Virus record (IMG/VR): IMGVR_UViG_2579778721_000001
Span: 1-6,104 of that record
Source: a virus
Taxonomy: Duplodnaviria > Heunggongvirae > Uroviricota > Caudoviricetes
Direction: 5' to 3' (one strand)
Length of the DNA: 6,104 bases
Under the pieces are notes generated by a model. The model was not told the origin of the DNA and did no database searches. It saw only the letters and a program-made list of their open reading frames with translations. Position numbers and translations under genes: made by a program. Shown piece by piece: positions 1-6,104 of the stretch (positions are counted from its first letter, which is position 1; each line of letters starts with the position of its first letter).

Positions 1-351
1 TCACCAGAAAATTGATAACAGAGGGCGTTGCAGCGGGGTTGTCACTTAAGCGTATGGTCAACCTGACAACCCGGTGTCCTCAACGGGGGAAGGAATAACC
101 CCGCCATACTTACCGCCGCGCCATTTCGCGGATTGCCACAACCGGAAGCGCACGGTCGACGAAAATTTAACGACAGGCTATCTATGAACCAGCTACCTCG
201 CCGTGCGCTTTCGCGTTATGGTCTGACTTTTCAGGGAAATATCCTTTCAGTAAACTGTCAGTGCCGGATGCTCACCCGTGTCCGGCGCACGCACTCCACC
301 TCACCCGTGGAGAACTCCTTAATTACCAACCTTAGCTTCGTTGGTTATCTA

Positions 352-570
352 TTAACGCGGGTATGTAATCATTCTGGCAATGCTTAATGCCGCTGCTTTT
401 TCCAGCCTGGTGATATCCTGCTCCAGAGCGGACAGATTTTCAGCCTGCTTAGCTCTGGCTTCATTAGCCCATTTCAGATCCTGCGCTGCATTAATTTTCT
501 GGCGCATCCACTCATAAAGTTCATCATCGGTATAGTCTGGCGCGATGATGACGGGTTCTCGTTTCTGCAT
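352..570 (-). CDS. Hypothetical small protein (72 aa), distal gene of the leftward early operon; YdfC-like by size and position only
   Basis: ORF in supplied track. ATG at 570-568 with a GAGGA Shine-Dalgarno (complement of 577-581) about 6 nt upstream. Tandem in-frame stops TAA/TAG. Same strand and tight spacing with the two upstream small ORFs. Confidence 0.6.
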   Translation of the reverse strand: MQKREPVIIAPDYTDDELYEWMRQKINAAQDLKWANEARAKQAENLSALEQDITRLEKAAALSIARMITYPR

Positions 571-599
571 ACTGATTCCTCGCGGTGCTGTTTCGCTTA

Positions 600-710
600 T
601 CAGCCGTTAGATTTTCCCGAACTGGAAAGCGCCTGTTTAAATTCACTGAAGCTGAGAGCTTCTTCGCCTTCGGCAAGACCATCGAAGTATTCTTCGTAAG
701 CCTTTTCCAT
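600..710 (-). CDS. Small protein, 36 aa (MEKAYEEYFDGLAEGEEALSFSEFKQALSSSGKSNG); middle gene of leftward operon
   Basis: Manual translation of the minus strand; absent from the ORF track, presumably below its length cutoff. ATG at 710-708, stop TGA (complement of 600-602). Start lies 19 nt after the stop of the 730..885 ORF and its stop 29 nt before the next ATG. No clear SD, so it rests mainly on operon context and acidic, non-random composition. Confidence 0.4.
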   Translation of the reverse strand: MEKAYEEYFDGLAEGEEALSFSEFKQALSSSGKSNG

Positions 711-729
711 GATTGTGTCGAAATCCATA

Positions 730-885
730 TCACTCACCTGAGTTTCTTTCCAGCCAGCGACGGGCACCATTTTCGGTTTTAAACGTTTTGCTTTTGGTAT
801 ACGTCATCGCGGTGAATGTGCCGTCCTGGTTGGGAAACACGCCGTACACCAGAGATTCGTTGTTGCCAAGCTCGATAGTATCCAT
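730..885 (-). CDS. Small protein, 51 aa (MDTIELGNNESLVYGVFPNQDGTFTAMTYTKSKTFKTENGARRWLERNSGE); first gene after the pL-like promoter; possibly DUF1391 (YdfA/YdaF-type)
   Basis: Manual translation; absent from the ORF track. ATG at 885-883 preceded by GAGG (complement of 891-894) with a 5-nt spacer. Stop TGA (complement of 730-732). Size and position match the first small gene of Rac/Qin-type leftward operons; family assignment is from memory, not a search. Confidence 0.55.
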   Translation of the reverse strand: MDTIELGNNESLVYGVFPNQDGTFTAMTYTKSKTFKTENGARRWLERNSGE

Positions 886-954
886 GCTGACCTCATTTCC
901 CCTTAACGCCGGGTGGCGGAACTAAAACCTACAGCGCCGTGCTGTTCTTGATAG

Positions 955-977
955 AAATATTAGTAACGCGGATATTT
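955..977. promoter_or_regulatory. Putative operator (OL-type) palindrome AAATAT-N11-ATATTT overlapping the pL -10
   Basis: Inverted repeat AAATAT (955-960) / ATATTT (972-977). Contains the 9-mer AAATATTAG that recurs at 1044-1052 and, inverted, at 1671-1679 in the pR region. Confidence 0.4.
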
Positions 978-985
978 TAAGTCAA
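957..985 (-). promoter_or_regulatory. pL-like sigma70 promoter for the leftward operon
   Basis: On the minus strand: -35 TTGACT (complement of 980-985), 17-bp spacer, -10 TAATAT (complement of 957-962). About 65 nt upstream of the ATG at 885. The -10 sits inside the operator-like motif CTAATATTT. Confidence 0.45.
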
Positions 986-1042
986 CAGTATGGCGTATGA
1001 TATTTTTGATTTGGTAACTATGTAAATGTTTTTTCAAGGGAA

Positions 1043-1056
1043 AAATATTAGTTATA
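1043..1056. promoter_or_regulatory. Second copy of the operator-like 9-mer AAATATTAG (possible OL2 or secondary promoter)
   Basis: AAATATTAGT at 1044-1053 matches 955-964 at 10 of 10 positions (11 of 13 over the extended site). No convincing -35 at 17 bp, so more likely a binding site than a promoter. Confidence 0.3.
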
Positions 1057-1082
1057 CAGCTGATTTGCAGAAGTTATGGCAC

Positions 1083-1112
1083 AAAAAAACCGACTAAGAC
1101 GTCGGTTTTTTT
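1083..1112. terminator. Bidirectional Rho-independent terminator between the repressor gene and the leftward operon
   Basis: A-run (1083-1089), stem CCGAC (1090-1094), loop TAAGAC, stem GTCGG (1101-1105), T-run (1106-1112). The hairpin is followed by a U-run on either strand. Sits 27 nt past the repressor stop. Confidence 0.7.
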
Positions 1113-1138
1113 GTTGTGGATGGGGTAGTGAGCGGTGG

Positions 1139-1600
1139 CTACTGGTTACGTTTCTTTAGTGCCAGCATGTTCTCGAAGGCTTCCTCGTAGAGCTTGTTTA
1201 GTCCACGTAGCTGGTTAAGGAGTTTGGCTTTTTCTGACGCAGGTAGAATCTCGAAGAGGTTAAGTAACTCTGCCTGTTCTTCATTGACCAGCCTCCATCC
1301 TTTGCCTGAAAAGTTATCATCATAAGTATCTGATGATCTTACATAATTCATTAAGTCTTTAAGGTCTTCTCGAATGTCCTCTGGTTTTACCTTTAACAGA
1401 GCCGCAAATTTTAGCGCAGCGTCGGTATTTACCGGTATCTTGCCGTTCAGATACTGGCTAACGGTGCCTTGAGATTCGAATCCCAACAACTCAGCCGCCA
1501 GCTCTTGAGTCAGCTTCAGCTCTTTTTTTCTTGCATTCCATGCGGCTTTTAAATTCTTGCTCGCTTCTGGAGTTGCAATCACTTCGCGTGTTTTTTTCAT
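1139..1600 (-). CDS. Prophage repressor, HTH XRE/cI-type N-terminal domain, 153 aa, no S24 peptidase domain (DicA/RacR-type)
   Basis: ORF in track. The HTH segment QELAAELLGFESQGTVSQYLNGKIPVNTDAALKFAALLKV matches the lambda cI helix-turn-helix pattern ([39 protein letters not shown]). Divergent from a Cro-like gene. At 153 aa it is too short for a LexA-like C-terminal domain. No SD upstream of the ATG, consistent with a leaderless mRNA. Confidence 0.85.
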   Translation of the reverse strand: MKKTREVIATPEASKNLKAAWNARKKELKLTQELAAELLGFESQGTVSQYLNGKIPVNTDAALKFAALLKVKPEDIREDLKDLMNYVRSSDTYDDNFSGKGWRLVNEEQAELLNLFEILPASEKAKLLNQLRGLNKLYEEAFENMLALKKRNQ

Positions 1601-1606
1601 ACATAG

Positions 1607-1634
1607 AGTTTATTTGTTTTACCAATATTATCAA
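1607..1634 (-). promoter_or_regulatory. Candidate pRM-like promoter producing a leaderless repressor mRNA
   Basis: On the minus strand: -35 TTGATA (complement of 1629-1634), 16-bp spacer, -10 TAAACT (complement of 1607-1612), ending 6 nt before the ATG at 1600. Weak hexamers, as expected for an activated maintenance promoter. Speculative. Confidence 0.3.
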
Positions 1635-1648
1635 AGATAGTCTGGCTA

Positions 1649-1677
1649 TTGATCTTTAAAATTAGCGGGGCTAATAT
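1649..1677 (+). promoter_or_regulatory. pR-like sigma70 promoter for the rightward early operon
   Basis: -35 TTGATC (1649-1654), 17-bp spacer, -10 TAATAT (1672-1677). About 30 nt upstream of the cro-like ATG at 1708. Overlapped by the palindrome ATTAGC-GGG-GCTAAT (1661-1675). Confidence 0.5.
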
Positions 1678-1679
1678 TT
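1658..1679. promoter_or_regulatory. Putative OR operator palindrome (AAAATTAGCGGGGCTAATATTT)
   Basis: Inverted repeat ATTAGC / GCTAAT around a GGG centre. The right half CTAATATTT is the reverse complement of the AAATATTAG motif in the pL region and overlaps the pR -10. Confidence 0.45.
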
Positions 1680-1707
1680 GCTCGAGGCATAACGTAGAAG
1701 GTTGGCT

Positions 1708-1983
1708 ATGAACTTAAGAGACTATTTAAAAGAGAAACATATCACCCAGCTACAGTTTGGGAAGCTAACGGGTTTATCTCAGGTGCATGTAAGTCGAGTG
1801 CTGGGGGGCTATGAAAGATTCAGCCCTGAAAAAGCATTACGTGTTGCTGAAGTAACGAATTTCGAGGTTACACCTCATGAACTCCGGCCTGATATTTACC
1901 CGAATCCAACCGACGGCTTACCTGTTGGATTCAAGGCTAACACACCAAATGCATCGGAGTTGATTCATGAAAATCAGGCATGA
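1708..1983 (+). CDS. Cro-like early regulator, YdaS-type HTH protein (91 aa from ATG 1708; the track ORF begins at an upstream TTG at 1702)
   Basis: ORF in track. GAAGG SD (1696-1700) 7 nt before ATG 1708. Divergent from the repressor. HTH-like segment LTGLSQVHVSRVL and a C-terminal ELRPD motif typical of YdaS/Cro-type proteins (from memory). Confidence 0.75.
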   Translation: MNLRDYLKEKHITQLQFGKLTGLSQVHVSRVLGGYERFSPEKALRVAEVTNFEVTPHELRPDIYPNPTDGLPVGFKANTPNASELIHENQA

Positions 1984-2392
1984 GCACATCCGCATGGCGA
2001 TGAATGCCTGGGCGCATCCGGACGGTGAAAAAGTTCCGGCAGCTGAAATAACCCGGGCTTATTTTGAGCTTGGTATGACGTTCCCGGAATTATATGACGA
2101 CAGCCATCCGGAAGCCCTGGCTCGCAATACCCAGAAAATTTTCCGCTGGGTGGAGAAAGACACTCCTGATGCGGTTAAAAAAATTCAGGCGTTGTTACCA
2201 GCGATCGAAAAAGCAATGCCGCCTCTGCTGGTGGCCCGAATGCGCAGCCACAGTTCAGCTTATTTTCGGGAGCTGGTGGAGACGCGGGAACGACTGGTGA
2301 GAGACGCTGATGATTTTGTCGCAGTGGCGATCGCTGGTTTCAACCAGATGAATCGTGGTGGCCCTGCAGGAAATATTGTGGCTGTGCATTGA
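1967..2392 (+). CDS. YdaT-type protein (cII functional analogue), 141 aa
   Basis: ORF in track. ATG 1967 overlaps the upstream stop (1981-1983) by 17 nt, with GGAG SD at 1956-1959. N-terminus MKIRHEHI and overall size match my recollection of the YdaT family; not verified by search. Confidence 0.7.
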   Translation: MKIRHEHIRMAMNAWAHPDGEKVPAAEITRAYFELGMTFPELYDDSHPEALARNTQKIFRWVEKDTPDAVKKIQALLPAIEKAMPPLLVARMRSHSSAYFRELVETRERLVRDADDFVAVAIAGFNQMNRGGPAGNIVAVH

Positions 2393-2463
2393 CTCGCAAT
2401 ATTCATACCGGATCACTTCCGGCAATTTGTGAGTAAAAAGATTCGGTATCAGAAGAGGTGAGT

Positions 2464-3504
2464 ATGGCTAACGCCTGGCTCAGATTATGGCATGACATGC
2501 CAAATGACCCTAAGTGGCGAACAATTGCCAGGGTGTCAGGGCAGCCAATTGCAACAGTGATGGCAGTGTATATCCACCTTCTGGTGAGCGCGTCACGAAA
2601 TGTCACGACATGTCACGGCGTGTCACTACGTGGTCACATTGATGTCACGACGGAAGATTTAGCAAGTGCGCTTGATGTGACGGAAGAAGTAATTGATTCA
2701 ATTTTACAGGCAATGCAGGGGCGGGTACTTGATGGAGATTTAATCACCGGATGGGAAAAACGCCAGGTACTGAAAGAGGACAATGGCAACGTTTCACAAA
2801 CCGCGAAATCCCCGGCAGAGCGCAAGAGAGCGCAGCGCGAGAGGGAAAAATTACGAAAACAGAATGAGGGGTGTCACGACGAGTCACGCATATGTCACGA
2901 CATGTCACGACGAGTCACGACAGATAAAGATACAGATAAAGAATTAAACCCCACACATAACGCGCACGTGCGCGAGAGTGCTCCGACCAGTGAGTCGAGT
3001 GGTACGCCGTTGCAGGCAGCAGAACCTGCATCCCTGGATGGACTGAGCGAACCCATCGGGAAATTTCCGATGGTCGATGACTGGCATCCGTCGCCGGATT
3101 TTCGACGACGGGCTGCGTTGTGGGGGATGGCTTTGCCGGAGCCGGAATTTACACCTGCTGAACTTGCCGCTTTCCGGGACTACTGGGCAGCGGAGGGGAA
3201 AGTTTTCACGCAGGTTCAGTGGGAGCAGAAATTCGCCCGTCACGTAAATCACGTCAGGGCGCAGGTTAAGCCAGTCAGCAAGGGGGTAAACCATGCAGCA
3301 GCACCAGGTGGCACCGCATCACGGGCAGTTCAGGAAATTCGGGCAGCACGTGAGCAGTGGGAACGTGAAAACGGATTTATCAGCGACGGAAACGGTCTGG
3401 AAGCTGTGGGAACTCATGGGGGAGGTTTATTCGAACCGCTGGACCCAGAAGAACGGGGCCGCACCTTCGAAGCTCTGGATTGCACAGATTGGCGCGATGA
3501 CTGA
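2464..3504 (+). CDS. Replication initiator (lambda O analogue): N-terminal DNA-binding region plus DnaT-like C-terminal domain; contains the putative origin
   Basis: ORF in track (GTG 2458; ATG 2464 preferred, GAGG SD at 2455-2458). Residues around FPMVDDWHPSPDFRRRAALWGMALPEPEFTPAELAAFRDYWAAEGKVFTQVQWEQKFARH align closely with the E. coli DnaT C-terminal domain ([59 protein letters not shown], from memory). Iteron arrays lie inside the gene, as in lambda O. Confidence 0.8.
   Translation: MANAWLRLWHDMPNDPKWRTIARVSGQPIATVMAVYIHLLVSASRNVTTCHGVSLRGHIDVTTEDLASALDVTEEVIDSILQAMQGRVLDGDLITGWEKRQVLKEDNGNVSQTAKSPAERKRAQREREKLRKQNEGCHDESRICHDMSRRVTTDKDTDKELNPTHNAHVRESAPTSESSGTPLQAAEPASLDGLSEPIGKFPMVDDWHPSPDFRRRAALWGMALPEPEFTPAELAAFRDYWAAEGKVFTQVQWEQKFARHVNHVRAQVKPVSKGVNHAAAPGGTASRAVQEIRAAREQWERENGFISDGNGLEAVGTHGGGLFEPLDPEERGRTFEALDCTDWRDD
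2591..2651. repeat. Iteron array 1: six direct copies of GTCAC(G/N)(A/N)C at 10-11 bp phasing
   Basis: GTCAC starts at 2592, 2602, 2612, 2622, 2633 and 2644. Spacing is not a multiple of 3, so the repeat is at DNA level, not protein level. Confidence 0.7.
2871..2921. repeat. Iteron array 2: five direct copies of GTCACGAC-type repeat at 10-11 bp phasing
   Basis: GTCAC starts at 2873, 2883, 2894, 2904 and 2914. Same orientation as array 1. Immediately followed by an AT-rich tract. Confidence 0.75.
2922..2947. other. AT-rich tract with direct repeat CAGATAAAGA x2 next to iteron array 2 (candidate DNA-unwinding element of the origin)
   Basis: cagataaagatacagataaagaattaaa is far more AT-rich than the surrounding coding sequence and directly abuts the last iteron, mirroring lambda ori architecture (iterons followed by an AT-rich region). 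Confidence 0.5.
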
Positions 3505-3958
3505 GCAGCAAATCCGACAGGTCTGCCGCCAGTGCATGGACCGCTGCCGGGCGGGTGAAACATGGCCTCCGGACCTGGCTGAGTTTGTGGCGCTGATTTC
3601 AGAAAGCGGGGCCAATCCATTTGGCCTGACGGTGGATGCTGTGATGGAGGAGTACCGCCGCTGGCGTGATGAGTCCTGGCGATATGACGGAAGCGACAAA
3701 TATCCGTGGCCTCAGCCTGTGCTGTACCACATCTGCCTCGAAATGCGTACCAGAGGGATTGAGCGCCAGATGACGCAGGGTGAGTTAAAACGACTTGCGG
3801 AACGGCAACTGACGAAATGGGCAAAGCATGTTGGTAACGGGATGAGTGTTCCGCCAGTGCGACGACAACTGGAAGGGGCGAAACACCCGCAAGGGCCAAC
3901 GCCAATTGAACGGCTGAAACAGGAATACGAACGCCGGAAGGCAGCTGGTTTTATTTGA
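3293..3958 (+). CDS. Lambda P-like replication protein (helicase loader), 221 aa
   Basis: ORF in track. Strong SD AGGGGG (3281-3286) 6 nt before ATG 3293. Colinear similarity to lambda P from memory: WIAQIGAMTEQ vs WVLAFRENGITTMEQ, YPWPQPVLYHICLEM vs YPWKSNAHYWLVTNL, ELKRLAERQLTKWAKHVGNG vs EFRRKAADELVHMTARINRG. The alignment register supports the 3293 start over the downstream ATGs. Confidence 0.7.
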   Translation: MQQHQVAPHHGQFRKFGQHVSSGNVKTDLSATETVWKLWELMGEVYSNRWTQKNGAAPSKLWIAQIGAMTEQQIRQVCRQCMDRCRAGETWPPDLAEFVALISESGANPFGLTVDAVMEEYRRWRDESWRYDGSDKYPWPQPVLYHICLEMRTRGIERQMTQGELKRLAERQLTKWAKHVGNGMSVPPVRRQLEGAKHPQGPTPIERLKQEYERRKAAGFI

Positions 3959-3991
3959 ATCTGAGAAACGATTTTGTCGGAGGAAATTTTA

Positions 3992-4762
3992 ATGGAAACC
4001 GTATTTGACGCACTGAAAGCAATGGGAAAAGCCACATCGGTAGAACTGGCCGCGCGACTTGATATCAGTCGTGAAGAGGTTCTCAACGAGCTGTGGGAAC
4101 TCAAAAGAAATGGCGTCGTTGATAAAACTGGTCACACCTGGTTTCTGGCTGGCGAAGGTGAATCCCGGGTAACCGAAGAGCGGCCAGTAAAATCTGAAGC
4201 ACAGGATATGCTGACCGGGGAGGTCGAACAAAAAGTTACCGCAGACATGATGATTGAGTTTATCGGTCAGGATGGTGCTAAAACGTGTGAGGAACTGGCG
4301 GGTAAGTTCGGCGTCAGTACTCGCAAGGTTGCCTCCACGCTGGCGGTGGTAACCGCAACGGGGCGGCTGGCACGCGTTAATCAGAACGGTAAATTTCGTT
4401 ACTGCATGCCGGGCGATAATTTACCAGCAGAGCCGAAAGCCGCGCTGGTAACGGAAAGTGATGGTAAGGCCTTTCCTCAGCCAGCAGGTGCTGCGTTACC
4501 AGTCCGGGAAGCCGCAACACAGGAAGAAATTAAAACAGAAACTGTGGCGGACATTGTGCAGCCGTTGCCATCGTTTACCGAAACGCAAGCAGATGAGCTG
4601 ATTTTTCCGTCCCTTCGCAGGGCAAACCTGGCGCTGCGCAGGGCGAAAAGTGATGTTCAGAAGTGGGAGCGAGTCTGCGCCGCGCTGCGGGAGGTGAACA
4701 AGCACCGGGATATTGTTCGACAGATTACTGATTCTTCCCGCCGTGTTGTATCGGAAAAGTGA
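3992..4762 (+). CDS. Hypothetical protein with two tandem winged-helix-like modules (256 aa from ATG 3992; the track ORF begins at TTG 3974)
   Basis: ORF in track. GGAGG SD (3979-3983) 8 nt before ATG 3992. Two internal HTH-like repeats (residues about 7-50 and 90-135). Confidence 0.7.
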
Positions 4763-4777
4763 TTGCCGGAGGCGCTT

Positions 4778-5170
4778 ATGGCAAAAGTATTTACACCAGA
4801 AGAGCGGGAAGAAGTGAAGGCGCGCATTGTGGAATTCGTGCGCCTGAGCGGACGAGAAACTTTTCGACAACTGGCAGATAAAACGGGTGTCAGTAAGACC
4901 GCTATTCGTCGTTTATCTGGTGCGCTTGCGGCCAGTGGTGATGTCTGGCTCTCTGGTTGCGGGGTATTTCCATCAGAGCAGGCGTATCGCGTATGGCGTA
5001 AGACACCGGAGAAGGCTGCTGACCCGACACTGATTCGAAAGTTACCTGACGGAGAAATACGTCGTTACAACAGACGGCAGAACATAATTTGTCGTGAGTG
5101 CCGCCAGAGCGAAGTTATGCAGCGTGTGCTGGCGTTCTATCGGGGAAACTTTCAGGAGGTGATGGAGTGA
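4778..5170 (+). CDS. Hypothetical winged-helix protein with C-terminal CxxC motif (130 aa from ATG 4778; the track ORF begins at TTG 4763)
   Basis: ORF in track. GGAGG SD (4768-4772) 5 nt before ATG 4778. The wHTH module EFVRLSGRETFRQLADKTGVSKTAIRRLSGALAASG is paralogous to module 2 of the upstream protein ([36 protein letters not shown]). Confidence 0.7.
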   Translation: MAKVFTPEEREEVKARIVEFVRLSGRETFRQLADKTGVSKTAIRRLSGALAASGDVWLSGCGVFPSEQAYRVWRKTPEKAADPTLIRKLPDGEIRRYNRRQNIICRECRQSEVMQRVLAFYRGNFQEVME

Positions 5171-5463
5171 GGGTCAGAGTTTATATTGCCGGTCCAATGA
5201 CGGGATATGAAAATTTCAACCGTGAGGCGTTTCACAAGGCGGAAGAGGAACTGAAACGGGAAGGGCATACCGTCTTAAACCCGGCAGTACTTCCGGACGG
5301 GCTGACACAGCCGCACTACATGGATATTTGCATGGCAATGATTCGTTGTGTGGATGCGATTTACATGCTGAATGGCTGGCAGCGGTCAGCGGGCGCTAAG
5401 GCAGAGCTGGCACTGGCGGAGAAACTGGGGCATGCAGTGATTTATCAGGAGGTGGCTCAATGA
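5167..5463 (+). CDS. DUF4406-like protein (nucleoside 2-deoxyribosyltransferase-like fold), 98 aa from GTG 5167
   Basis: Track ORF 5098..5463. Preferred start is GTG 5167, overlapping the upstream stop as GTGA, with GGAGG SD (5155-5159) 7 nt upstream. The N-terminal V-Y-I-A-G-P-M-T-G motif is typical of DUF4406 proteins (from memory). Confidence 0.65.
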   Translation: MRVRVYIAGPMTGYENFNREAFHKAEEELKREGHTVLNPAVLPDGLTQPHYMDICMAMIRCVDAIYMLNGWQRSAGAKAELALAEKLGHAVIYQEVAQ

Positions 5464-5921
5464 GAGAGGTTAACTATGAGGCGCTTCGTGAGGCAGCACA
5501 AAACTATCAGTCGACGCTGGCGTGGTATCAGGCTATCCCGGACAGCCCAAATGCTGAACGGGATTGTGATGCGGCTCTTGCTGCGTTTAAGCGTCACATC
5601 CGTCATCGGGAAGCGGATATTATCGCTGATTTGCTGGATGGACTGGAAGAAGCAAAATCACAACTCAACGAGCAGCGTGAGTATTACGAAGGCGTTATCT
5701 CTGATGGGAGCAAGCGTATTGCTGAACTGGAAGCGCGGGAAGTTCAATTACCGACTCGCTACGACCTTCGATATGGACACCCGATAAATGCAGATGAGCG
5801 ACATGTCATGATACCTAAAGAAAATGGCAGTTGGCTTTACCTGATTGACTTAGAACACGCATTACGCGTCGCTGGCATTCGCATCAAAGGAGAGGAGCAT
5901 GGAAATAAAACCAGAGGATGA
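5460..5921 (+). CDS. Hypothetical protein, 153 aa; N-terminus weakly reminiscent of Ead/Ea22-like phage proteins
   Basis: ORF in track. ATG 5460 overlaps the upstream stop as ATGA. AGGAGG SD (5447-5452) 7 nt upstream. The ALREAA N-terminal motif resemblance is from memory and low confidence. Confidence 0.6.
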   Translation: MREVNYEALREAAQNYQSTLAWYQAIPDSPNAERDCDAALAAFKRHIRHREADIIADLLDGLEEAKSQLNEQREYYEGVISDGSKRIAELEAREVQLPTRYDLRYGHPINADERHVMIPKENGSWLYLIDLEHALRVAGIRIKGEEHGNKTRG

Positions 5922-6104
5922 GTTAAGCAATATCGTTTTATTTCCGGTAAAAGAGGATGACCCTCGTAATCAGGTTAATTTTCTTTATGAGCCATCGGAA
6001 AGACCATATTGTCATCACGCCTCTGTTCGGGTTGACGAAAAAGAGCGTCAGGTCCGCTGTAAAATCTGCGGTGCAGTTGTGGAGCCGTTTGACTGGATGC
6101 TCTC
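5899..6104 (+). CDS. Hypothetical protein with Cys/His zinc-ribbon-like motif, 5' partial (runs off the window end)
   Basis: Manual translation from ATG 5899: MEIKPEDELSNIVLFPVKEDDPRNQVNFLYEPSERPYCHHASVRVDEKERQVRCKICGAVVEPFDWML..., open to the window end. SD AAGGAGAGGAG (5888-5898). Overlaps the upstream gene by 23 nt. Not in the track because no stop lies within the window. Confidence 0.5.
   Translation, partial: MEIKPEDELSNIVLFPVKEDDPRNQVNFLYEPSERPYCHHASVRVDEKERQVRCKICGAVVEPFDWML

Follow-up and report, generated by a model that had tools for sequence, protein, structure and literature searches.

The lysogeny repressor encoded in the 6,104-nucleotide stretch of Caudoviricetes DNA analysed here (positions 1 to 6,104 of IMG/VR virus record IMGVR_UViG_2579778721_000001; the whole stretch is hereafter called the window) appears to be a non-cleavable protein of the DicA/Gifsy-like kind, most likely displaced by a small antirepressor for which Rem is the best candidate. 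We place the probability of this reading at roughly 0.6. In the proposed mechanism, which is argued from domain content, homology, genomic context and co-occurrence, the N-terminal domain would bind operators at the rightward (cro/ydaT/replication) and leftward (ydfABC-dicF-dicB) promoters, and a two-helix, DicA-like tail would mediate oligomerisation. A small antirepressor would then remove the repressor from DNA by stoichiometric binding, as for DicA and the Gifsy repressors. This antirepressor would be the 57-residue member of the Rem family whose gene lies about 9 kb rightward in this prophage, fired from its own sigma-70-like promoter with a conserved leader, by a trigger that is probably not the classical LexA route. 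Cro-driven spontaneous switching would be expected as a background route. The gene and its two parts are as follows:

1139-1600, minus strand: repressor gene (153 residues and a stop codon), the prophage's CI analogue, belonging to the DicA family.
1331-1600, minus strand: N-terminal DNA-binding domain (residues 1 to about 90), a five-to-six-helix bundle like the N-terminal domain of lambda cI.
1142-1282, minus strand: helical tail at the C-terminus (residues 107-153), made of two helices and homologous to that of DicA.

An earlier note on this DNA (hereafter, the original prediction) had described a protein with a cI-like helix-turn-helix (HTH) N-terminal domain and a short helical C-terminal region, leaving no room for a peptidase domain or an Ala-Gly cleavage site, and the present analysis bears out this description. 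The open reading frame (ORF) occupies exactly positions 1139-1600 of the minus strand, and the C-terminal sequence quoted in that description comprises residues 111-153. Pfam assigns HTH_3 (residues 23-75, E 1.1e-9) and HTH_31 to the protein, and nothing else. Residues 12-78 resemble the N-terminal domain of lambda cI (phmmer against PDB: 3kz3/1lmb, E 2.6e-4 to 8e-4), and an AlphaFold model built on ten family members matches 1lmb in Foldseek with a template modelling (TM) score of 0.77, normalised to the target. The model is all-helical, without beta structure (helices at residues 11-24, 32-39, 44-51, 59-69, 73-76, 78-89, 107-118 and 121-152). The N-terminal bundle is modelled with predicted local distance difference test (pLDDT) values of about 80-90 and is followed by a disordered linker. 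The C-terminal tail may serve as an oligomerisation and/or antirepressor-contact region.

None of the features of the autocleaving LexA and lambda cI repressors, namely a Ser/Lys dyad, an S24 domain and an Ala-Gly scissile bond, was found in the repressor. Peptidase_S24 (PF00717) was not matched even at E<=1 in the hidden Markov model search of Pfam that had been proposed as a check, NCBIfam and PADLOC likewise revealed no peptidase in the protein, and neither Ala-Gly nor Cys-Gly dipeptides occur across its 153 residues. The distant relatives of the N-terminal domain that bear PF00717 are 234-259 residues long, i.e., about 80-100 residues longer than the repressor. They are 49-64% identical to it over residues 1 to about 80, where the likeness ends; past that point of the alignment they run into the S24 domain, whereas the repressor has just a short tail. 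By these alignments, the protein is a mosaic, in which a DicA-type tail follows a cI-like DNA-binding domain that elsewhere precedes S24.

Since the S24 domain and the cleavage site are both lacking, RecA-stimulated self-cleavage of the repressor is, as judged from sequence and model, very unlikely, and the earlier claim that induction probably does not proceed in this manner stands. Direct RecA-stimulated cleavage could otherwise be envisaged through a cryptic site or an unrecognised catalytic fold, its sole link to the protein being an N-terminal domain related to those of cleavable repressors. The missing S24 match and dipeptides, a length that falls 80-100 residues short and the all-helical fold argue against it, as do the Gifsy repressors, which belong to the same class in the grouping of Lemire et al. 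and are experimentally uncleaved (PMC3121763); we consider it the least probable of the alternatives discussed here.

Comparison of the repressor family (10 sequences, 58-100% identical) with three DicA-class proteins by hhalign gave a probability of 97.3% (E 1.9e-11), with residues 23-153 aligned to residues 12-134 of DicA. In BLASTP against K-12 DicA, the C-terminal 42 residues (DicA 91-132) are 38% identical (E 8e-6), and the NCBIfam DicA model (NF007257/PRK09706) aligns over 7-132 of its 135 profile positions in the repressor. Since the profile homology extends over the full length, the repressor is, in terms of sequence, a remote homologue that shares the architecture of DicA. It is not a DicA orthologue by NCBI's criterion, with 35.1 bits against a cut-off of 101, and the 55-residue tail alone, used as a query, returned only fragments of the same protein and did not reach DicA. 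The assignment to the DicA/RacR type in the original prediction is thus upheld in part: the DicA half is supported by the hhalign probability, the BLASTP match of the tail and the gene order of the Qin prophage, which encodes DicA, whereas homology to RacR was undetectable (BLASTP E 26; hhalign probability 1%). The designation "RacR type" is true only functionally and by neighbourhood, on account of the adjacent YdaS/YdaT-family genes. The PaaR2-type repressor (L014) was not matched by the repressor in tblastn, and no direct sequence similarity of the repressor to Gifsy phages was found at E<=1e-5 in the phage collection.

The Gifsy repressors were described as short proteins without a cleavage motif, uncleaved after mitomycin C (Lemire 2011, PMC3121763); small antirepressors, whose genes lie far from the immunity region, displace them from the operators (PMC3121763). 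The same authors counted DicA and RacR as members of this class, with homologues in most E. coli genomes, and documented cross-acting antirepressors (PMC3121763). In the case of DicA, the antagonist is Rem, by which the DicA-controlled promoter dicBp is derepressed 165-fold (Ragunathan 2023, PMC10448788); the signal that induces rem in Qin has not been identified (PMC10448788). Dependence of the present prophage on an antirepressor or another route, as proposed originally, agrees with both studies (PMC3121763, PMC10448788) and with the presence of a Rem-family gene in the same prophage.

The prophage of which this protein is the lysogeny repressor is a lambdoid one of E. coli; it sits at ompW in strains such as 042 and ABU 83972, both of which encode the identical repressor (WP_000753626.1). 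In E. coli 042 (locus L001) the prophage extends from an integrase beside ompW to an ompW remnant over about 53 kb (53.6 kb) and looks complete. The whole window is 99.8% identical to ABU 83972-type prophages, and its differences from E. coli 042 are confined to the first ~400 bases. Relative to ABU 83972, the window is without a 575-bp segment (two small ORFs) between positions 334 and 335. The repressor region (window positions 900-2000) is 100% identical in many complete genomes, and near-identical copies of the gene were matched in 276 of 5426 complete E. coli genomes. Full-length homologues of the repressor, 58-71% identical, occur in Hafnia, Serratia, Salmonella and a soil metagenome-assembled genome (MAG), and among deposited phages the repressor is present in Rac-SA53 alone (99.3% identical, annotated dicA).

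In Qin, rem is flanked by hokD and ydfU, a DUF968 gene. At the rem position of the E. coli 042 prophage, outside the window, there is an intact 57-residue ORF (L001 29884-30056), the first 25 residues of which are 76% identical to K-12 Rem, the remainder being unrelated. RefSeq annotates only the first 25 codons of this ORF, as an "incomplete" pseudogene, and the same stub annotation is found at the rem position of ABU 83972 (L013 23359-23433), where the gene is known from annotation alone; the pseudogene label is probably a mis-annotation that arose from comparison with a longer Rem. A 90-residue hypothetical protein encoded just before the DUF968 gene was also considered as the Rem equivalent and was discarded, as it shows no similarity to Rem and the real ORF is the upstream one of 57 residues. 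Rem homologues all carry Pfam PF27490 ("Rem"), and one of their clusters occurs on at least 1000 contigs.

Two subtypes of Rem can be distinguished. The short form is present in all four loci of the repressor family with enough flanking sequence, i.e., E. coli 042, Rac-SA53, Salmonella s1 and the soil MAG, the repressors of the latter two being 70% and 68% identical, respectively; in Rac-SA53 it is a 58-residue protein, annotated rem, that is 69% identical over its full length to the 57-residue Rem of 042. The long form (83-85 residues) is present in four DicA-class prophages (Qin, PPompW of O145:H28, mEp460 and PhiR42_1). Among seven prophages, the C-terminal parts of Rem are 71-84% identical when the class is the same and about 20% when it differs. 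Rac-SA53 is the sole member of the phage collection with the full short Rem.

The association was extended to a wider sample of 22 diverse contigs that carry a short Rem with enough flank, loci that are not phylogenetically independent. In 16 of them a member of this repressor family (68-98% identical) lies 5-9 kb away, with varied replication and nin genes in between. Strict co-variation of repressor and Rem, which had been proposed after the seven prophages, was weakened by the remaining contexts, in which other repressors occur. The association is strong and not exclusive, and it could reflect a cognate pair, a promiscuous antirepressor or shared ancestry of a Rem-DUF1367-YbcO-Q module.

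Rem proteins could be modular, with a conserved N-terminus of about 25 residues and an exchangeable C-terminus that sets the repressor class, such that the short 57-residue form would serve this repressor family and the long 83-86-residue form would serve DicA proper. As part of the same reading, the conserved sigma-70 promoter and structured leader, rather than LexA, would govern Rem, so that the prophages and dicBF would answer a non-SOS signal, and fusions of the short module to Rha/Ash proteins would give feed-forward or trans-acting derepression. We advance this combined reading tentatively, as a conjecture that is rather more apt to fail than to hold. A Rha/Ash-family protein that adjoins dicB in the left operon of 042 (L001 17364-18218, minus strand) matches residues 21-55 of the short Rem with its residues 231-265 (37% identity, E 2e-7). 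Two 187-residue Rha-like ORFs of the Salmonella locus (L008 1223-1786 and 4511-5071) have the same Rem-like C-terminus, and the Rha/Ash gene is absent from the ABU 83972-type prophage. By analogy with FsoA of Fels-1, the Rha/Ash protein may be a second, repressor-controlled antirepressor.

A conserved set of elements precedes rem, comprising a terminator, a sigma-70-like promoter (TTGATA, TTGATC or TTGCTT, N16, then an invariant TAGAAT -10) and a leader of about 90 nucleotides with a small hairpin. The upstream regions concerned are L001 29727-29883, L005 3404-3620 (reverse complement) and about 9870-10000 of L014-L031. The stem of the leader hairpin varies compensatorily (CCCC/GGGG versus CCCT/AGGG). 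This organisation suggests that Rem, the candidate antirepressor, may be subject to post-transcriptional control. Rfam contains no family for the rem leader or for the window.

Sites for LexA were sought with a weight matrix derived from E. coli boxes, which themselves score at least 13 bits. No LexA site was found in the window (best 7.8 bits) or in the 700 nucleotides upstream of rem in 22 contigs (at most 7.9 bits), and scans of whole prophages or loci (E. coli 042, Qin, Rac-SA53, Salmonella and the MAG) revealed no LexA box near rem. The count of CTGT-N8-ACAG was at chance level. The expectation of an SOS-controlled antirepressor elsewhere in the prophage is therefore not borne out, as rem is not preceded by a LexA box in any locus examined, nor was the LexA-controlled antirepressor operon that is the hallmark of Gifsy found here. 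In the absence of such a box before rem, the inducing signal is probably not the classical LexA route.

The 53.6-kb prophage does contain a single strong LexA-like site, TACTGTAAAAATATCCAGTT (L001 33225-33244), which scores 24.5 bits compared with a shuffle maximum of 20.1. It is located about 12 kb to the right of the window, within codons 3-9 of a gene for a DNA methyltransferase that comes after Q and a tR'-like terminator, and it is kept in the soil-MAG relative (L009 932-951, 22.7 bits), where the methyltransferase is 82% identical. Coding constraint could account for its conservation, as could regulation by LexA of either the methyltransferase or late read-through; nothing evident ties the site to derepression.

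The control elements through which the repressor would act flank its gene on both sides:

1601-1707, unstranded: divergent control region with PRM-like and PR-like promoters, an operator-like CTAATATTT at 1671-1679 and a TAATATT core at 1624-1630.
955-1051, minus strand: PL/dicBp-like promoter region, with TTGACT at 985-980, N17 and TAATAT at 962-957, and CTAATATTT at 955-963 and 1043-1051.

The PRM-like promoter was located on the minus strand by a promoter scan (-35 at 1634-1629, -10 at 1612-1607); its transcript would start near the ATG of the repressor and would be nearly leaderless, as for lambda cI. The PR-like promoter, on the plus strand, was read from the sequence (TTGATC at 1649-1654, N17, TAATAT at 1672-1677). 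The -35 and -10 elements of the PL/dicBp-like promoter are kept in the Salmonella and MAG relatives. The 9-mer CTAATATTT has three perfect copies in the window, at 955-963 (minus strand), 1043-1051 (minus strand) and 1671-1679 (plus strand), all within the two intergenic regions that flank the repressor gene. With up to one mismatch there are five matches in the window, a count reached by one of 200 shuffles. The operator-like blocks persist in the Salmonella and MAG loci, even though the repressors there are just 68-70% identical. The 9-mer contains the -10 hexamers of both the PR-like (1672-1677) and the PL/dicBp-like (962-957) promoters. The repressor is thus predicted to bind TAATATT-containing operators that overlap both -10 elements, and bound repressor would occlude both promoters.

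Several points weigh against displacement by Rem as set out above. The assignment of the operators is confounded, because CTAATATTT contains a -10-like hexamer, and the motif could partly reflect promoter sequence. The C-terminal tail, the role of which is deduced, is modelled at low confidence (monomer pLDDT 42-59). Six of the 22 short-Rem contexts carry repressors of the PaaR2 type, S24 type or 139-residue type, or RacR, and the linkage could therefore reflect shared ancestry or promiscuity rather than a cognate pair. Moreover, spontaneous derepression of dicBp in Qin is independent of Rem and RecA (PMC10448788), and Rem therefore need not be the main route.

A serious alternative is a switch without a dedicated inducer, in which a bistable repressor/Cro circuit flips spontaneously or when general stress (heat, urea or changes in nucleoid proteins) loosens the repressor's hold on DNA, and Rem is irrelevant. 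In the DicA system, dicBp switches spontaneously in about 1-2% of cells, independently of recA and rem, and both urea and elevated temperature turn it on (PMC10448788), the PaaR2/YdaS/YdaT region of CP-933P is bistable without SOS input (PMC8630535), and the short Rem is also found beside unrelated repressors. On the other hand, a controllable route of induction is expected of an apparently intact prophage of about 53 kb, the homologous DicA system is derepressed 165-fold by Rem (PMC10448788), and in 16 of 22 diverse contexts the short Rem is found together with a repressor of this family. We regard such a switch as rather unlikely, and displacement by a Rem-like antirepressor remains the preferred reading.

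The neighbours of the repressor gene in the window are as follows:

1708-1983, plus strand: Cro-like regulator of the YdaS family, 91 residues, with ATG at 1708; Pfam YdaS_toxin and HTH_3; PHROG 35.
1967-2392, plus strand: CII-like regulator of the YdaT family; Pfam YdaT_toxin; PHROG 163, CII-like activator, E 2.5e-45.
352-885, minus strand: ydfA-like gene (730-885, DUF1391), ydfB (600-728) and ydfC (352-570); PHROGs 751, 2061 and 1744; RefSeq annotation in 042 and ABU 83972.
886-950, minus strand: leader of the left operon, about 60 nucleotides, nearly invariant across relatives and travelling with the immunity module.
1081-1114, unstranded: bidirectional terminator-like hairpin 3' of the repressor gene, a perfect 14-bp inverted repeat flanked by A/T runs.

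The repressor gene is divergent from the gene for the Cro-like regulator and lies upstream of, and co-directional with, ydfABC-dicF-dicB, as expected of the DicA family. The left operon continues past window position 1 into dicF and dicB. The DicF small RNA gene was located in ABU 83972 (L013 11958-12009, minus strand; Rfam 76.7 bits), with dicB next to it, and window positions 1-9 correspond to its 5' end. To the right, beyond the Cro-like and CII-like pair, there are DnaT-like and lambda-P-like replication genes. The Cro-like protein travels with the repressor, being 97-100% identical in Rac-SA53 and E. albertii and 59% in Salmonella and the MAG. In Rac-SA53, the ydaT allele (L006 9884-10306) is only 32% identical, though the repressor is 99% and cro 97% identical. 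This exchange beside a kept repressor and cro puts a recombination boundary after cro and before the CII-like gene, and the immunity module in the strict sense, as delimited by these alleles, consists of the repressor, the operators and cro.

In view of these neighbours, the repressor might instead be an antitoxin-like regulator of a YdaS/YdaT toxin module, as was once proposed for racR-ydaST. Pfam names the two families YdaS_toxin and YdaT_toxin, and RefSeq annotates a "toxin YdaT family protein". In the present prophage, which is apparently complete, the YdaS/YdaT-family genes hold the cro and cII positions upstream of the replication genes, the YdaT homologue is annotated as a CII-like activator by PHROG, and the repressor and cro remain linked where the ydaT allele is exchanged. 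Furthermore, YdaS and YdaT have been argued, by experiment and context, to be analogues of Cro and CII (PMC5917428, PMC8630535). We therefore consider an antitoxin role improbable. The statement in the original prediction that derepression of the neighbouring genes can be toxic is retained to the extent that it is plausible through dicF and dicB, which lie downstream, and is not retained for YdaS/YdaT as toxins (PMC5917428, PMC8630535).

Removal of the repressor by another protease, either a phage ImmA/IrrE-like M78 enzyme or host Lon/Clp, was considered in light of an HTH and Peptidase_M78 protein encoded by the prophages of E. coli 042 and ABU 83972. In other elements, repressors of the ImmR type are cut by proteases of the ImmA type (established; cited in PMC10432266). 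The M78 protein and its neighbour were identified as the Rosmer anti-phage defence proteins RmrA and RmrT (PADLOC E 6e-105 and 4.6e-25), and the pair is absent from the Rac-SA53, E. albertii, Salmonella and MAG loci with the same repressor family. Because RmrA belongs to the Rosmer pair and is not co-inherited with the repressor, it was rejected as an ImmA-like repressor protease, and since it is the sole M78 protein, there is no co-inherited or adjacent ImmA-like metalloprotease of the kind that characterises ImmR/ImmA systems. We give little credence to proteolytic removal; the evidence against it concerns the phage enzyme. In Qin, hokD is directly followed by the terminator and the rem promoter; in the 042 prophage the Rosmer pair (L001 27992-29726) is inserted ahead of these two, next to hokD, and looks like a defence "moron" in the nin region.

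Two further observations concern the window itself. The leader of the left operon is near-invariant even among loci with repressors only 68-70% identical, an exact 24-mer of it was seen only in loci with this repressor type, and Rac-SA53 keeps it despite a different downstream gene. The leader has no Rfam match, no covariation and no unusual folding stability; it might represent a nut/put-like element or a further site for protein binding. In addition, two clusters of four TGTCACGAC-like repeats with a spacing of about 10 bp are located at 2601-2651 and 2872-2921, within the DnaT-like/O-like replication gene. Allowing one mismatch, TGTCACGAC has 9 matches, 8 of which fall within the two clusters, and this count was reached by none of 200 shuffles. 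The clusters are predicted to be an iteron-type replication origin within the initiator gene, as in lambda O.

The repressor is an uncharacterised, distant member of the DicA lineage, and the inference of the original prediction restates a published principle (the non-cleavable class in 2011, DicA/Rem in 2023). The additions are modest, namely the mosaic view of a cI-like domain with a DicA-type tail, the two subtypes of Rem and the absence of LexA boxes. The finding is useful for annotation, as RefSeq gives the repressor family no name beyond "helix-turn-helix domain-containing protein" and, in the same genomes, marks rem, the likely partner, probably wrongly, as a truncated pseudogene. If the link with Rem is true, a signal other than classical LexA-controlled SOS would induce an apparently intact prophage that about 5% of complete E. 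coli genomes carry, and this would bear on the timing with which phage-borne toxins and the division inhibitors DicB and DicF are made. The carriers of the prophage include uropathogenic and asymptomatic-bacteriuria lineages and an LT-II toxin phage.

Like the repressors of the lambda cI/P22 C2/LexA type, the present protein has a homologous N-terminal domain and the same role and position in the immunity region, and unlike them it has a 47-residue helical tail in place of the C-terminal oligomerisation/cleavage domain. With RacR of Rac and PaaR2 of CP-933P it shares the character of a short, non-cleavable repressor divergent from YdaS/YdaT-family genes. The repressors of Gifsy-1, -2 and -3 (GfoR, GtgR/GftR and GfhR) are likewise short (136 to about 150 residues), resemble the cI N-terminal domain and lack a cleavage motif. 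Their antirepressors (GfoA, GftA and GfhA) are small and encoded far from the immunity region, beside an irsA homologue, and irsA/DUF1367 likewise comes after rem in Rac-SA53 and in numerous further loci. Upstream of the Gifsy antirepressor operon lie a LexA box and a dinI homologue, whereas rem here follows hok, with a sigma-70-like promoter and no LexA box.

The closest counterpart is the DicA system of Qin. The two proteins are only about 26% identical overall, the present one exceeds DicA by 18 residues and has an additional helix at the N-terminus, and its N-terminal domain is nearer to lambda cI and the S24-bearing repressors than to DicA; the operators are presumably different. The Rem encoded here is the short, 57-residue form, the C-terminal two-thirds of which are unrelated to K-12 Rem, and the prophage looks intact whereas Qin is cryptic. 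In both systems, the repressor consists of an HTH_3 domain, a linker and a two-helix tail with an ELLxLFxxLPxSE motif, without S24; the gene order is repressor, ydfA, ydfB, ydfC, dicF, dicB, with a divergent Cro-like gene; and a Rem-family gene occupies the same position in the nin region, with a homologous promoter and leader.

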